The notes under the pieces are model-generated. The model searched no databases. It worked only from the letters and a program-made list of their open reading frames with translations, and was not told the DNA's origin. Of a stretch of DNA of 45,506 nucleotides, positions 42,083 to 45,506 are shown piece after piece. The position numbers and the translations under genes are program-made. The stretch is from a virus. Taxonomy: Duplodnaviria > Heunggongvirae > Uroviricota > Caudoviricetes. Location of the stretch: IMG/VR virus record IMGVR_UViG_2563366923_000008, positions 1-45,506 of that record. One strand, 5' to 3'. Position 1 is the stretch's first letter, and each line of letters starts with the position of its first letter.

Positions 42083-42672
42083 GCCTCTTTTCAAAAAATG
42101 ATTATGCCGGTGCGCTTGGTGCGCTGCTACCGACGGGCAGGGCGTGGCCCCGGTCGCAAAGAACGGTACAGGCTGCGGTATTACGGGCACTGGGCAGCGC
42201 GTTTCAGCGTTCTGACAACGATGCGCAAAGCCTGATTACTGGTGCTTTTCCCCCTACAGCGACGGTAATGTTGTCAGAATGGGAAAGCTCTCTGGGGTTA
42301 CCAGATGATTGTGCGATTGGTGAATCCGGTGGCGTCAGCGATCGCCAGCGCGCCGTGGTGGCAAAGTTAATCAGCACCGGCGGCCTGAACCGCGATTATT
42401 ACATCCGGGTGGCTGCAGCTCTTGGTTATACCATCACTATCACACAGTTCCGGCCCGCTATGAGTGGCATGTCAGTATGCGGTGATGCGCTTAACGGTGA
42501 CGAGTGGCCATTTACCTGGCGGATAAATGCGCCACAAACAACGATCAAGTATTCGCTTGCTGGCGCGTCCTACTGCGGAGATCCGCTCGCATCGTGGGGC
42601 AATAAACAACTGGAGTGTTCAATCAACAAAATTGCCCCATCCCATCTGAACATCATTTTCAATTATTCATAA
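42079..42672 (+). CDS. Tail protein (Mu gp48-like)
   Basis: 197 aa; ATGA overlap with J. Confidence 0.55.
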   Translation: MSLFSKNDYAGALGALLPTGRAWPRSQRTVQAAVLRALGSAFQRSDNDAQSLITGAFPPTATVMLSEWESSLGLPDDCAIGESGGVSDRQRAVVAKLISTGGLNRDYYIRVAAALGYTITITQFRPAMSGMSVCGDALNGDEWPFTWRINAPQTTIKYSLAGASYCGDPLASWGNKQLECSINKIAPSHLNIIFNYS

Positions 42673-42723
42673 CTGATATTTCCCCCTCTGATTTTATCGC
42701 TTAACACTAAGTGAGGATTAACT

Positions 42724-43398
42724 ATGCTCCGAATCGGGCAAGTCGAAGCCACTGCAACGCAGGATGGCAAATATACTGATGGAAGTGTTGCTGGTGGTAT
42801 TGCCGCAACGAGGCTGCGGGCAGCAGCGTTTAATGCCATGCAGGAAGAGTTAGCGCATATCGTAGAGTCAGCAGGATTGGCGCTCGACATTAACGATATG
42901 ACTCAGGTTTTAAAAGCCATTCAAAAACTCACACTGAGCCGTGCAAACCCATTTGCCGATATCAAATCAGATGGTGCAGCGGCGATTTCTACGGCTCTCA
43001 CAAACCTTGGTTTGGGAGAAGCGGCAACGAGGAACGTCGGAACGGGTACCGGCCAAGTACCAGATATGAGCAGTTTTACAACGGGGCACTCTGGAGCAGC
43101 AGACTGGCCGATTCCTAAATCTGGATGGAGTAAGGGGCCGGATGGGGTAATTACACAATGGGGTACTTTCGGTTTCCCCGTTGGACAGACAGGGACGAAT
43201 GTTGTTTTCCCGCTACCTTTCCCCGCGCGGGTCGAATCAATTACACTGACAATGGCAGATATCCAGGAGTCTCTGCTTTCTCCAGCAACCATGCCTGCTT
43301 ATGGAGTTAACTCAACTGGTACTTCAAGAACGGGTTTTACAGCCCGTATGTCAGGCGCCGGTGGGTTTAATCTTTGCTATATAGCGAAAGGGAGATAA
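42724..43398 (+). CDS. Tail fibre protein (constant N-terminus plus variable C-terminus, currently expressed orientation)
   Basis: N-terminal MLRIGQVEATATQDGKYTDGSVAGGIAATRLRAAAFNAMQEE typical of fibre N-termini; inversion crossover site inside the gene at about codon 95. Confidence 0.7.
   Translation: MLRIGQVEATATQDGKYTDGSVAGGIAATRLRAAAFNAMQEELAHIVESAGLALDINDMTQVLKAIQKLTLSRANPFADIKSDGAAAISTALTNLGLGEAATRNVGTGTGQVPDMSSFTTGHSGAADWPIPKSGWSKGPDGVITQWGTFGFPVGQTGTNVVFPLPFPARVESITLTMADIQESLLSPATMPAYGVNSTGTSRTGFTARMSGAGGFNLCYIAKGR
42995..43020. promoter_or_regulatory. Left gix/hix-like inversion crossover site
   Basis: CTCTCACAAACC-TT-GGTTTGGGAGAA; shares the half-site GGTTTGGGAGAA with the inverted copy at 44873-44898. 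Confidence 0.6.
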
Positions 43399-43402
43399 CA
43401 GA

Positions 43403-43846
43403 ATGAATAAAGTTAAAAGTGTTTACAGCCCGTCCGAAAATGCAATCTACAACGCAGCGCTATATGAAAGTTATATCAAGGAGGGGACATGGCCGCAGGA
43501 TGGTATTGAAATCAGCGATGAGGATGCTGTCAGATTTAATGGGGGAAATAAGCCAACAGGAAAAATGCTGGGAATGGTTTCAGGGACCCTTGCATGGGTT
43601 GATGAGCCGCCGCTTTCACCAGAACAGAAAATATCAGATGCAGAAAACATGAAAGCCACATTTCGTGCAAAAGCTGACAGTGAAATATCCTGGCGTCAGG
43701 ATGCTGTTGATGCTGGTATCGCAACTGATGAAGAAACTTCAACTCTCACCCAATGGAAGAAATACCGTGTGCTGCTGATGCGTGTTGATACGTCAACAGC
43801 ACCCGATATTGAATGGCCTACGCCTCCGGCAGCTCAGGCCAGATGA
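43403..43846 (+). CDS. Tail fibre assembly protein (Tfa)
   Basis: 147 aa; C-terminal ...TSTAPDIEWPTPP motif shared with the opposite-strand Tfa'. Confidence 0.7.
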   Translation: MNKVKSVYSPSENAIYNAALYESYIKEGTWPQDGIEISDEDAVRFNGGNKPTGKMLGMVSGTLAWVDEPPLSPEQKISDAENMKATFRAKADSEISWRQDAVDAGIATDEETSTLTQWKKYRVLLMRVDTSTAPDIEWPTPPAAQAR

Positions 43847-44420
43847 CATCAGGCGCGGTGCTGGTATCTGTTGCCGTCACCGCGTCAATGTAATCCAGCA
43901 CGACGTTAAGTCGGGTTGTTTCTGCCTGCGTCAGTTTCCGCCCGGCCTGTAATTTCAGCTGAATCAGACTAATGGAAGCCATTGCTGCATCAATCAGTGA
44001 CTGGCGCTGTGCTTCTGCCGCGTCTACTGCGGCACTGTGTTGTGCCTCAGTGTCTGTCACCCATTTCTCACCATCCCATTTATCGTATGGCGTTAACGGG
44101 GCGATAGTGGTTGTATTTTCGGGGTAATCACCCAGAGCTGTGATTTCTTTGGCGTCTCCCGTTTCGGTGTTATAGACGATTTCACCGCGATGGTCTGGCA
44201 CATATTCCCATGAGTTTAAATCTGCCGAACGGCAGATTGCATAACCAGCCTTATGTATACCAGGTTCATCCAGACAGGAATATGCCGGGATACCAACACC
44301 AACGGCAAGATATTCATTTGAAGTGGAAATATATTCCCGAGTTTCACCATCATAGCTATAGACGGTAATATCCCCCGCCTTCGTGGCAATAAGCTCGCTA
44401 TTTAATACAGCGTTATCCAT
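43818..44420 (-). CDS. Alternative tail fibre assembly protein (Tfa'), inverted orientation
   Basis: 200 aa; C-terminal ...TSTAPDVIWPELPEA; convergent with and overlapping Tfa. Confidence 0.65.
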   Translation of the reverse strand: MDNAVLNSELIATKAGDITVYSYDGETREYISTSNEYLAVGVGIPAYSCLDEPGIHKAGYAICRSADLNSWEYVPDHRGEIVYNTETGDAKEITALGDYPENTTTIAPLTPYDKWDGEKWVTDTEAQHSAAVDAAEAQRQSLIDAAMASISLIQLKLQAGRKLTQAETTRLNVVLDYIDAVTATDTSTAPDVIWPELPEA

Positions 44421-44905
44421 TATGCAGCCCTCACGATAAAGTTAAATGCAATATTTCGCGCACGTGTTTCCGTTGATGTTCTGGCAACAAGTGATGCATC
44501 AAAATAATAATTCGCCTGTTTATATGTACCACCTGTCGCAATTGATGCGAGATTTGGTGTCAATGTTGAAGAGGTAAATGCGCCGAAAGTATTATTATTT
44601 GTCCCCGTGGTCATATCAAAAAAGCTACCTGTAATATTTTGCAGCGTATCGCTCTGAGCACTCAATAACGCTCGCCCACTGTCCACTCCACGCCCATCAT
44701 CCCAGCCACGAATAAACTCACCACGTAAATCAGGCAATTTATTTGTCGGGTAAGCCTTTGCCAGCTCCGGGTATTCTTCAGCAGAAAAAGCTGCACCATT
44801 GCATTTCAACCAGCCTGTCGGTGGTGTAGCTGAAGGCCACGGAACAGGCACACCAACCGGTAATGCAGAGCCTTCTCCCAAACCAACCTTTTTTATAACC
44901 ATCAA
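44420..44905 (-). CDS. Alternative variable tail-fibre C-terminal segment (Sv'), currently silent orientation
   Basis: 161 aa; ORF runs leftward through the right crossover site (...VGLGEGSA... matches fibre ...LGLGEAA...); would fuse to the constant fibre N-terminus after inversion. Confidence 0.6.
   Translation of the reverse strand: MMVIKKVGLGEGSALPVGVPVPWPSATPPTGWLKCNGAAFSAEEYPELAKAYPTNKLPDLRGEFIRGWDDGRGVDSGRALLSAQSDTLQNITGSFFDMTTGTNNNTFGAFTSSTLTPNLASIATGGTYKQANYYFDASLVARTSTETRARNIAFNFIVRAA
44873..44898. promoter_or_regulatory. Right gix/hix-like inversion crossover site
   Basis: Reverse complement reads TTATAAAAAAGG-TT-GGTTTGGGAGAA, comparable to Mu gix (TTATCCAAAACC-TC-GGTTTACAGGAA). 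Confidence 0.6.
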
Positions 44906-44957
44906 AAATCTGGTGATGCTTCGCCGTTTCTCCTGTTTTCATAACAGGAGAAATCCC

Positions 44958-45506
44958 ATGATTTACGGTTATGCCCGAGTATCAACAAACCACCAGGACA
45001 CTGAATTGCAACTAACGGCGCTCAAGTCAGCGGGTTGTGAGAAAATTTTTGAAGAGCATGCCAGCGGGAGGAAATCGAATCGGCCGGTTCTAAAACGGCT
45101 CATCGCCACTATGCAGCCGGGGGATGAACTGGTGGTCTGGAAGCTGGACAGGATAGGCCGCAACGTTCTGCATGCGCTGTTGATGTTCCAGCAGTTACAG
45201 GAAAAGGGTATCAACTTCCGCAGTATTACCGATGGCGTGGATCTCAAAACAGCCAGCGGCCGCTATAACTTTCGTAACATCCTTTCCGCAGCACAATATG
45301 AATCTGATCTTAATAGCGAACGTACCTTAGCAGGGCTGGCCGTAGCCAGGGCAAAAGGGCGAGTTGGTGGTCGCAGGCCTAAGTTCACGGATGAGCAATG
45401 GCGGGAAATGGGGGAGCGGATGGCAACCGGTGAATCACGACAAAGCGTATCAAAAACGTATGGAGTAGGGCTCTCAACTCTGTATAAAAAGTTTCCAGCT
45501 AGCTGA
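44958..45506 (+). CDS. Serine DNA invertase (Hin/Gin/Cin/Pin family)
   Basis: MIYGYARVSTNHQDTELQ... catalytic Ser motif; C-terminal HTH; AGGAG SD; adjacent to the invertible fibre segment. Confidence 0.9.
   Translation: MIYGYARVSTNHQDTELQLTALKSAGCEKIFEEHASGRKSNRPVLKRLIATMQPGDELVVWKLDRIGRNVLHALLMFQQLQEKGINFRSITDGVDLKTASGRYNFRNILSAAQYESDLNSERTLAGLAVARAKGRVGGRRPKFTDEQWREMGERMATGESRQSVSKTYGVGLSTLYKKFPAS

Follow-up and report, generated by a model that had tools for sequence, protein, structure and literature searches.

Does the right end of this prophage hold a switch that still exchanges the tip of its tail fibre, and does the recombinase encoded beside it work in the way of the invertases known from other phages? 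The stretch of DNA analyzed here, 45,506 nucleotides that we call the window, is a complete E. coli prophage with the phi80 attachment site and carries integrase, RecT/RecE, replication protein O, terminase, portal, capsid, sheath and baseplate genes. Invertible host-range switches have been known since the 1980s, and an earlier note on this DNA had proposed one here, of Gin/Cin type. As a host-range switch, it is of a known kind and adds nothing conceptually, RefSeq already labeling the genes of such elements; judging from its sequence, it is the divergent recombinase alone that appears unusual.

Results

The segment in question is 1876 bp long and is bounded by two 26-bp sites inverted to each other (Table 1), whose coordinates, shared half-site and central TT are as the earlier note had given them. 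Both are imperfect palindromes with 12-bp half-sites around an asymmetric 2-bp crossover dinucleotide common to the two. In particular, the reverse complement of the right site reads TTATAAAAAAGG TT GGTTTGGGAGAA, and the sites are identical at 20 of 26 positions, among them the full 14-nt TT+GGTTTGGGAGAA. The longest inverted pair found in a repeat search, 42986-43021 and 44872-44907, contains both of them. The sites are non-random: searching with the palindromized 26-mer and allowing up to 3 mismatches gave one match in the window and none in any of 100 shuffles, the half-site TTCTCCCAAACCWW has no occurrences in the window beyond the two sites, and even the loose core pattern AAASS NN SSTTT matches exactly these two. 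In control loci, the same pattern picked out exactly the annotated boundaries of the Mu G segment, the annotated P1 cixL and the two e14 sites, and the left site shares its architecture and core with the annotated gix and cix sites and with those of e14. What is more, positions 43007-43022 agree with TTGGTTTGGGAGAAGG, a published e14 repeat, in 15 of 16 bases, and positions 44871-44886 are identical to the published e14 repeat CCTTCTCCCAAACCAA (PMC12529663). The AAAGG of the right site's outer half-site is typical among PinL-linked sites.

Table 1. Coordinates of the fibre cassettes, recombination sites and invertase gene in the window.
Feature	Position	Strand	Description
Fibre ORF	42724-43398	+	224 aa, Gp53-like_C
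Sc, constant fibre N-terminus	42724..43008	+	95 aa, ends ...AISTALTNL; outside the invertible segment
Left recombination site	42995..43020	+	CTCTCACAAACC-TT-GGTTTGGGAGAA; crossover dinucleotide 43007-43008
Sv, currently expressed variable tip	43009..43398	+	129 aa; Pfam PF21882 Gp53-like_C, 1.6e-10
Tfa, assembly chaperone of the expressed tip	43403..43846	+	147 aa; Pfam PF02413 Caudo_TAP, 9.8e-33
Tfa', chaperone of the silent cassette	43818..44420	-	200 aa, TfaE-like; Pfam PF02413 Caudo_TAP, 4.1e-32
Sv', silent alternative tip	44420..44884	-	154 aa + stop codon, StfE-like; Pfam PF07484 Collar, 2e-15
Right recombination site	44873..44898	+	TTCTCCCAAACC-AA-CCTTTTTTATAA; crossover dinucleotide 44885-44886
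Short leader MMVIKKV	44885..44905	-	TTG start; outside the segment; start of ORF 44420-44905(-)
Perfect 11-12-bp hairpin/palindrome	44926..44954	+	TTTCTCCTGTT-TTCAT-AACAGGAGAAA; covers the invertase Shine-Dalgarno
PinL, serine DNA invertase (= phi80 PinL)	44958..45506	+	182 aa; Pfam Resolvase 3.6e-39 and HTH_7 1.5e-9; last prophage gene

What would an inversion between these sites do to the fibre? The left site lies inside the fibre gene at the ...NLGLGE... junction, where the earlier note had placed it, and the crossover falls in codon 95: namely, bases 2-3 of the Leu95 codon (CTT) are the central TT, and codon 96 begins at 43009. Inverting the segment in silico yields an uninterrupted 249-aa fibre (...TNLGLGEGSALPVGVPVPWP...) in which Sc is fused in frame to the alternative tip, so the reading frame is open in both fusions, over 224 aa in the present orientation and 249 aa in the inverted one, and the swap of the fibre C-terminus that had been proposed holds at this level. 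Each cassette pairs its tip with a Caudo_TAP chaperone gene downstream, and the cassettes run toward each other, the tfa genes on opposite strands overlapping by 29 nt at their 3' ends. The layout read earlier from the letters, a tip with Tfa on the plus strand and Sv' with Tfa' on the minus strand, was recovered in full by Pfam (Gp53-like_C, Collar and two Caudo_TAP domains). That the two Tfa proteins share only a C-terminal motif, as was also claimed, turned out to be wrong: both are full Caudo_TAP proteins, and BLASTP aligns about 96 of their residues at 31% identity (E 6e-7). The two variable tips, on the other hand, are unrelated, one from the Gp53-like_C and the other from the Collar family, and for this reason the two orientations likely target different receptors.

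Over its entire length, the 224-aa fibre is WP_001548481.1 of E. coli KTE233. Its homology to e14 StfP (33% identity, E 5e-21) likewise extends from end to end and takes in the NPF.DIKSDG...NLGLGE junction, and Sv' is 58% identical to e14 StfE, the first 64 aa being the same in both. The counterpart of Tfa' in related loci is annotated tfaE in RefSeq, and a search of NCBIfam assigned none of the five proteins to a specific family. The five ORFs are intact, as are both sites.

Just outside the segment, the short leader gives the silent cassette an ORF of its own, which is only predicted and which corresponds at its start to e14 stfE/stfE2. Could inversion then serve mainly the lysogen, by yielding a leader-fused, Sc-less tip protein from 44905(-) that blocks receptors against other phages? 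In K-12, inversion of the e14 P segment makes StfE2, the product of a chimeric gene, which is reported to block T2 adsorption (PMC12529663), and the window shares with e14 both the leader ORF outside the segment and identical repeats. However, e14 is a defective remnant and the window a complete prophage, whose fibre gene immediately follows the baseplate genes in the late tail operon, and its gp53-like tip shares only 33% identity with e14 StfP. A scan for promoters and terminators over 42600-45506 gave no more matches than shuffled sequence, with no convincing promoter above chance for the minus-strand leader ORF. As the main role of the element, we therefore deem this very unlikely. Defense of the lysogen and a host-range role of the virion are not mutually exclusive.

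Has the segment been caught in both orientations? For the exact allele, the inverted orientation is unrecorded: 7 contigs carry the present fibre, and an exact look-up of the 249-aa fusion predicted for the inverted state gave no match in a collection of 15 billion proteins. Among complete E. coli genomes, no record covered at least 80% of the window region, be it as is or inverted in silico; since this combination of allele and backbone is absent from them, they cannot show its flipping directly. That said, both orientations are found for a 98%-identical copy in a P2-like prophage, for a second allele linked to PinL and at the level of the population. Namely, strains LF4-1 and 22-245 share a P2-like prophage; the flanks of the segment are collinear between the two (100% and 97.8% identical), while the 1.9-kb segment, 99.8% identical, is inverted, with the breakpoints inside the repeats. 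Complete genomes with the same backbone, the yciI-tonB insertion and an identical PinL are seen in both orientations, and two PinL-linked loci, L003 and L047, carry one allele (97.4%, full length) in opposite orientations next to identical Sc and PinL. Finally, the 42 PinL-linked loci with both sites are divided about half and half between the orientations. Such differences between strains are no proof of the action of PinL, because other resident invertases act in trans, as PinQ does on the e14 segment (PMC12529663).

One may also ask if the repeats are mainly joints for the exchange of cassettes between prophages, the two orientations being independent acquisitions and not the outcome of flipping in place. 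In other strains, identity to the window is 100% up to exactly 43021 and resumes exactly at 44872, with the inner segment at 85-94%, and one and the same segment (98-99.6%) is present in three unrelated backbones with a different invertase in each: the phi80-att backbone with a Mu-like tail, an e14-like prophage, in which it adjoins pinE and is 99.6% identical over 1876 nt, and the P2-like prophage. Moreover, among the 42 PinL-linked segments, L003 and L047, with their opposite orientations, are the only pair with at least 97% identity over at least 90% of the length. Exchange of this sort is, however, compatible with inversion, inversion in place is the simplest explanation for the LF4-1/22-245 and L003/L047 pairs, and inversion of the e14 P segment has been directly established by experiment (PMC4272514; PMC12529663). 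We give hardly any credence to exchange as the main explanation of the repeats.

Turning to the enzyme, the gene next to the segment encodes a serine invertase, as the earlier note had it. The protein has the catalytic N-terminal domain and the C-terminal helix-turn-helix of a small serine recombinase, and the catalytic residues R7, S9, R42, D64, R65, R68 and F87 are all present. Of the proteins with solved structures, Gin is its best relative (3UJ3; E 1.4e-56, gapless over residues 1-181), the match to gamma-delta resolvase being weaker (4e-25). Two other roles were considered and rejected, that of a multi-site shufflon, the window having two sites only, and that of a resolvase in transposon resolution, there being no res-like direct-repeat arrangement and Gin being a far better match than the resolvases. 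The invertase is 100% identical to that of mEp237 and 99.5% to phi80 pinL. Gin and Cin are 72% identical, and Gin, Cin and Pin 72-81% among themselves, whereas PinL stays at 48-54% with members of this set (48-51% to Gin/Cin, 54% to PinE) and reaches at most 56% with canonical Pin/Hin-type phage invertases. PinL is a sister lineage outside the classical cross-complementing set. The designation Gin/Cin type is right as to the family, but the nearest relative of the whole element is the e14 P segment with Pin, not Gin or Cin.

The PinL clade is strongly conserved across Enterobacterales, with neither the catalytic residues nor helix E varying over its 120 protein clusters. Helix E reads YNFRNI instead of FFFHVM (Y103, N104, F105, R106, N107, I108), followed by the further invariant residues A111, Q113 and Y114. 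Upstream of the gene, the hairpin over the Shine-Dalgarno is predicted by RNAfold at -15 to -19 kcal/mol. About 80 loci have it conserved upstream of pinL, and a compensatory change turns T-A into C-G at the base of the stem. The hairpin is annotated as IR3 in phi80 and has weaker versions upstream of pinE and gin. A biochemical test of PinL was not found in the literature.

Does PinL carry the features by which its relatives respond to Fis? Residues K47, K/R48, K/R51, Q151, R154 and L155 of Hin are uniquely conserved in Fis-dependent invertases (PMC3798978). In the window protein, E150, E153 and R154 stand in place of the Q, R and L of Hin, Gin and Cin; in helix B, K46 and R47 are kept, and A50 replaces the third basic residue. 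Over the 120 clade clusters, the five commonest residues at position 50 are non-basic (A/T/G/D/S, 114 of 120), R153 is found in 44 and L154 in 55, and divergent members of the clade are without the Fis-contact triad. Of the Hin positions that control Fis dependence, F105, H107 and M109 correspond to N, R and I in PinL, and Q151, R154 and L155 to E, E and R.

As for a Fis enhancer in the 5' end of the gene, for which the earlier note had proposed a search, it is not clearly there. The Cin enhancer occupies nt 19-90 of cin in the P1 record, and we placed the Fis cores at nt 22-36 and nt 71-85 from this annotation and the G-N13-C rule, not from a published source. The first candidate site in pinL (GTATCAACAAACCAC) is kept, but lies within codons of the catalytic motif, while the second has lost both its flanking G and its flanking C, in the window and in the whole clade alike. 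The Fis consensus GNNYRNNWNNYRNNC, too degenerate to decide the matter, has its sole match in pinL at nt 178-192, probably by chance. Conservation at synonymous sites is of no discriminating power, since a general dip over the first 45-60 nt of the gene is all that is seen in the PinL clade and in the canonical control alike. Overall, the sequence signals for Fis/enhancer dependence of PinL are weak.

In light of this, could the copy in the window be a frozen relic, one that no longer inverts, its PinL being inactive or poorly activated, and that offers the gp53-like fibre only? Several observations would fit: the unconserved Fis-contact residues, the exact allele on record in one orientation only, the decayed cassettes of some related loci (a pseudogene in L002, stop codons in L051), and the fact that in phi80 and mEp237 PinL adjoins a decayed segment, so that it can persist without a working switch. 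Nevertheless, nothing in the five ORFs or the two sites of the window is broken, loci known in both orientations have the very same sites and PinL, these orientations are near 50:50 over the 42 PinL-linked loci, and the clade has kept its catalytic residues and helix E without change. On balance, we find such a relic unlikely.

Discussion

It is our belief that the region is, with high probability, a working site-specific inversion switch of the kind of the e14 P segment, Mu G and P1 C. Namely, the sites are non-random and match gix, cix and the e14 sites, the inversion joins Sc in frame to the second of two cassettes of tip plus Caudo_TAP chaperone with homology to StfP and StfE, and near-identical segments are found naturally inverted. 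Mechanistically, PinL would bind the two sites as dimers, synapse them and cut with a 2-bp stagger at the central TT/AA, after which half of the PinL tetramer would rotate by 180 degrees and religation would leave 43009-44884 inverted. In the present orientation, the late tail operon would express Sc with the gp53-like tip and Tfa, and in the inverted one Sc with the collar-domain, StfE-like tip and the TfaE-like Tfa', such that a population of lysogens would release virions of two alternative receptor specificities. We infer that PinL itself catalyzes the inversion of this copy and that inversion changes host range; activation of the reaction may proceed through Fis and an enhancer, as in Gin and Hin.

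A different view of the activation step can be put forward tentatively. Hin substitutions giving Fis-independent activity include F105N, which is the natural state of PinL (N104), and changes at M109, where PinL naturally has I108; in Hin, F105N is known to induce SOS. Since helix E is invariant in the clade exactly where such substitutions act, since the Fis-contact triad and the third basic residue of helix B are not conserved, and since the flanks of the distal Fis site are lost, it is possible, if somewhat doubtful, that PinL represents a distinct and widespread enterobacterial invertase lineage that does without classical Fis/enhancer activation or is under other control. Were this so, the main brake on its activity would be very low translation, imposed by the conserved hairpin over the ribosome-binding site.

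The modest value of the locus, in our opinion, is twofold. On the one hand, one 1.9-kb tip cassette circulates among phi80-like, e14-like and P2-like prophages, and it is precisely at the recombination sites that it is joined to them. On the other hand, PinL is a conserved sister lineage of Gin/Hin/Cin/Pin whose regulatory residues differ just where Hin becomes Fis-dependent. If PinL proved to be naturally Fis-independent and yet well behaved, it would be of interest both for the control of serine recombinases and for the building of recombinase tools.

Among known systems, the e14 P segment with PinE (in E. coli K-12, ymfQ-stfP-tfaP / tfaE-stfE / pinE) has a gene order identical to that of the window: a YmfQ/Mu-gp48-like gene, a short fibre, Tfa, the convergent Tfa', Sv' and the invertase. 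The segment is about 1.8-1.9 kb in both, the crossover dinucleotide is TT, the repeats share their core (TTGGTTTGGGAGAAG / CCTTCTCCCAAACCAA), and the window's fibre and Sv' are homologs of StfP and StfE. The differences are that e14 has PinE, not PinL, and other outer half-sites. Mu G with Gin and P1 C with Cin likewise have a small serine invertase adjoining a segment between 26-bp inverted sites, one of them in the fibre gene S, with alternative Sv/U and Sv'/U' cassettes, and the baseplate genes upstream in the window are Mu-like (gp44-48). However, the segments of Mu and P1 are 3-4.2 kb long and their fibres are long, as opposed to 224 or 249 aa here, the Mu crossover dinucleotide is GA/TC and not TT/AA, and the Fis-contact and helix-E regulatory residues of Gin and Cin differ from those of PinL. 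Hin/hix of Salmonella is a member of the recombinase subfamily to which PinL belongs, uses sites of the same 26-bp design and provides the mechanistic model of Fis-bound enhancer, invertasome and subunit rotation (PMC3798978, PMC4513852), but Hin flips a promoter, whereas the system described here flips a coding cassette.

The closest comparison for the invertase is with phi80, mEp237 and HK225, in which pinL encodes the same protein (99.5-100%) and, as in the window, no other gene lies between pinL and attP/attR at the yciI-tonB site. The upstream hairpin (IR3 of phi80) and the right recombination site are common to the window and to pinL of the phi80 type. Both phi80 and mEp237 are siphoviruses, in contrast to the contractile-tail phage of the window, and all that remains in these two is the right site and a fragment of a tip gene, annotated as a pseudogene, which makes their pinL an orphan. 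While phi80 PinL itself is uncharacterized, its original job was evidently to operate a two-cassette switch such as the one that the window preserves intact.

Recombination sites and gene content

The two putative crossover sites form the longest inverted repeat pair in a repeat search of 42600-45506. When palindromised, the 26-mer finds, with up to 3 mismatches, a single match in the window and none in 100 shuffles, and the inner half-site TTCTCCCAAACC plus WW has no further copy in the 45.5 kb. What is more, a relaxed pattern for the core, AAASS-NN-SSTTT flanked by 7 nt on either side, matches only the left and the right site in the window, and on control loci it returns exactly the two annotated boundaries of the Mu G segment, the annotated P1 cixL crossover and the two e14 sites. 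Since the pattern retrieves these Mu, P1 and e14 sites, the window's sites are, judging by their sequence, genuine members of the gix/cix/hix class. On the side of PinL, the serine invertase of the window, the outer half-site (44887-44898 in the window; also phi80 and the comparison loci L026, L027, L028 and L030) consistently has an AAAGG end toward the crossover, whereas on the canonical pin and gin side this end is AAAC(G/C), a difference which may reflect a clade-specific binding preference.

Coordinates of the sites and genes of the invertible module
Feature	Coordinates	Strand	Site sequence or Pfam domain
Fibre, 224 aa	42724-43398	+	Gp53-like_C
Left site	42995-43020		CTCTCACAAACC-TT-GGTTTGGGAGAA
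Tfa, 147 aa	43403-43846	+	Caudo_TAP
Tfa', 200 aa	43818-44420	-	Caudo_TAP
Sv' ORF, 161 aa	44420-44905	-	Collar
Right site	44873-44898		reverse complement = TTATAAAAAAGG-TT-GGTTTGGGAGAA
Recombinase (PinL), 182 aa	44958-45506	+	Resolvase + HTH_7

The gene content proposed in the earlier note, namely a fibre tip with its chaperone Tfa on one strand and an alternative tip, Sv', with Tfa' on the other, is borne out by the open reading frames and their Pfam domains. Bases 2-3 of the Leu95 codon of the fibre are the central TT of the left site, and inverting 43009-44884 in silico places the collar tip (Sv') in frame with the 95 constant N-terminal residues (Sc) to give a 249-aa fibre, as the proposed exchange of receptor-binding tips would have it. 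Compared with each other, the gp53-like and the collar tip are unrelated. The two Tfa proteins had been described as sharing only a C-terminal motif; in fact, their homology spans about 96 residues (31% identity, E 6e-7). Their genes are convergent, on opposite strands, with 3' ends that share 29 nt (43818-43846), and each stops just past its own TSTAPD(I/V)xWP motif.

Evidence for inversion

The evidence for inversion comes from comparing strains and loci. In particular, one and the same P2-like prophage, with collinear flanks (100% and 97.8% identical), is found in strains LF4-1 and 22-245, yet their 1.9-kb segments, 99.8% identical to each other and 98% to that of the window, are inverted, the alignments overlapping by 18 bp at each repeat. 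Among the backbone-matched loci, namely those that share the window's backbone, its chromosomal site and a PinL protein without any difference (WP_000639140.1), the gp53-like cassette adjoins Sc in the window, L002, L003, L014 and L015, and the collar cassette does so in L001, L004, L016 and L017. One allele is common to L003 and the IMG/VR locus L047 (97.4% across the full 1845 nt) but lies in opposite orientations in the two, their Sc flank and PinL being identical. Either orientation is found in about half of the PinL-linked loci with both sites recognisable (n=42). Against inversion, however, the exact fibre of the window is recorded on 7 contigs (E. coli KTE233), whereas an exact look-up of its predicted inverted fusion protein returned no entry from the protein collection. 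Since an invertase can also work in trans, PinQ on e14 being an example (PMC12529663), strain comparisons are no proof of which enzyme flipped the segment. Taken together, the sites, the genes, the in-frame fusion and the strain comparisons confirm what had been noticed from the sequence and support its interpretation as a Gin/Cin-type switch of the tail fibre.

Decaying copies were seen as well. Strain Z22-7 (L002, 3725-4820) has a truncated fibre gene, annotated as a pseudogene, and a left site altered by a G-to-A change (GGTTTGAGAGAA), and in locus L051 there are stop codons in the tip adjoining Sc.

Exchange of cassettes

The flanks of strain PCP06171 show 100% identity with the window, on the left as far as exactly 43021 and on the right from exactly 44872, and its inner segment is about 86% similar, in parts only; relative to other strains' copies (L001) the 100% identity gives way to about 86% precisely where the repeats end on their inner side (43021/43022 and 44871/44872). 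The segment recurs, at 98-99.6%, in three unrelated backbones (phi80-att, e14-like and P2-like) with a different invertase in each. The PinL-linked segments are highly variable: among 42 of them (L034-L113 and E. coli loci), L003/L047, in opposite orientations, is the sole pair to reach 97% identity across 90% or more of the length. Given the identity breaks at the repeats, the same segment in three backbones and this variability, the recombination sites also serve as the junctions at which a hypervariable module is exchanged horizontally. The tail/Sc backbone of the window was also found at other chromosomal sites, namely near tRNA-Pro/yejM in strain mussel ST536 (L013), with a different, canonical-type invertase of 186 aa, and adjoining hpaR in strain TC24 (L017), with PinL. 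It follows that invertase and fibre module can be exchanged separately.

The PinL lineage and its control

Gin, Cin and PinE resemble one another at 72-81% identity, but PinL matches them at only 48-54%. By far its best solved relative is nevertheless Gin (E 1.4e-56, gap-free), with gamma-delta resolvase at 4e-25. A protein search with PinL gave 7163 proteins at E < 1e-20. In the best-scoring 120 clusters identity is never below 79%, and their sources include Escherichia, Citrobacter, Klebsiella, Enterobacter, Salmonella, Serratia and Morganella. Less similar members (62-74% identical) from Morganella, Erwinia and Kluyvera likewise adjoin site pairs, spaced 1.7-2.4 kb apart.

A perfect 11-12-bp hairpin (44926-44954, -15 to -19 kcal/mol) spans the invertase ribosome-binding site, AGGAGA, which precedes the start codon of PinL by seven bases. 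About 80 PinL loci retain this hairpin, with a single compensatory change (T-A to C-G) at the base of the stem, and in phi80 it is annotated as IR3; the regions upstream of pinE and gin have shorter, imperfect versions. Most likely, such a structure would hold invertase translation low, or else the palindrome could be one that a protein binds.

Does PinL depend on Fis? The start of helix E is invariant in 120/120 of the best clusters and unlike the canonical set: positions 103-108, 111, 113 and 114 are Y, N, F, R, N, I, A, Q and Y in the PinL clade and F, F, F, H, V, M, L, E and M in the canonical enzymes. Hin F105 and M109, which correspond to PinL positions 104 and 108, keep the dimer locked in its inactive state; roughly half of the substitutions there are active without Fis or the enhancer element, and with F105N inversion in vivo becomes Fis-independent and SOS is strongly induced (PMC4513852). 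The residues said to be uniquely conserved in Fis-dependent invertases, Hin K47, K/R48, K/R51, Q151, R154 and L155 (PMC3798978), correspond to K46, R47, A50, E150, E153 and R154 in PinL. Across the 120 clusters, position 50 is mainly A, T, G, D or S, with no basic residue among these five commonest, and fewer than half have the R-L pair. Some members, such as those of Citrobacter phage Omnitron and locus L022, have a canonical-looking C-terminal domain, which suggests that these mosaics reflect domain swapping. The Omnitron gene (L009, 5175-5726) is 97% identical to the window's pinL up to about nt 445 and then encodes another C-terminal DNA-binding domain, in which the canonical R-L Fis-contact pair is present.

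As for a Fis enhancer in the 5' end of the invertase gene, which the earlier note suggested looking for, none is clearly apparent. In the P1 record, nt 19-90 of cin are annotated as the Cin enhancer, and the two Fis cores considered here (nt 22-36 and nt 71-85) were derived from this annotation and the G-N13-C rule rather than from literature positions. The proximal candidate is kept in pinL, but within catalytic-motif codons; the distal G at nt 71 and C at nt 85, which the genes of Gin, Cin and Pin and three other canonical ones retain, are both lost in the PinL clade. In a synonymous-site scan, the clade and the canonical group were not separable. On these observations PinL may or may not depend on Fis and an enhancer; we do not conclude that such dependence is absent.

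Prophage context and comparison with known systems

The window is an entire prophage, with the integrase (1-1194) as its first gene and the invertase as its last. The integrase is followed by RecT and RecE-like genes, a replication O gene, and lambda-type terminase, portal and capsid genes; the tail has a contractile sheath and Mu-like baseplate genes (gp44-48 homologues, Baseplate_J, YmfQ/Mu-gp48), and directly after these comes the fibre gene. In e14, according to a 2025 study, segment inversion produces a leader-fused tip protein, StfE2, which blocks T2 adsorption (PMC12529663). By analogy, the switch might serve defence of the lysogen, and an equivalent short leader ORF does lie outside the segment (44885-44905, minus strand). 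However, because the prophage looks complete and its fibre gene lies within the late tail operon, we rank host-range switching of the virion first and this effect after it.

The element is of a well-known kind, its nearest counterpart being the P segment of e14, whose inversion has been proven experimentally by sequencing, PCR and qPCR (PMC4272514, PMC12529663). The e14 gene order, ymfQ-stfP-tfaP / tfaE-stfE / pinE, is that of the window, and the published e14 repeats, 5'-TTGGTTTGGGAGAAGG and 5'-CCTTCTCCCAAACCAA (PMC12529663), match it exactly at 44871-44886 and at 15/16 positions at 43007-43022. StfP is a full-length homologue of the window's fibre (33%, E 5e-21), and StfE is 58% identical to Sv', the first 64 residues being identical. 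Indeed, the whole 1876-bp segment is 99.6% identical to one beside an annotated pinE in an e14-like prophage of strain NADC1036. Wider interest is limited to the divergent PinL lineage and its control.

The left 3 kb are 99.9% identical to phage mEp237, and the invertase protein is 100% identical to that of mEp237 and 99.5% to phi80 PinL. In complete E. coli genomes, the prophage lies beside yciI-tonB, which is the phi80 attachment site; the phi80 prophage junctions are kch-int and pinL-tonB (PMC5727415). The window resembles phi80 in its int/att module and differs in its tail, which is contractile and Mu/e14-like, whereas that of phi80 is of the siphovirus type. Upstream of pinL, the siphoviruses phi80 (L018, 4733-5000) and mEp237 (L019, 4700-5000) keep only the right site, TTCTCCCAAACCAACCTTTCAAATAT, and a tip-gene fragment annotated as a pseudogene, which corresponds to the opening codons of a minus-strand tip of the gp53 type. 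In mEp237, a site-like CTCGCACAAACC-TC-GGTTTAGGCACA (L019, 2917-2942) falls within the side tail-fibre gene, but its central TC is mismatched with the TT/AA of the site adjoining pinL. Neither locus has a partner site on the left whose crossover would match, and pinL there is therefore an orphan adjoining a decayed switch. The window holds the intact form of the module that survives as a relic in phi80.
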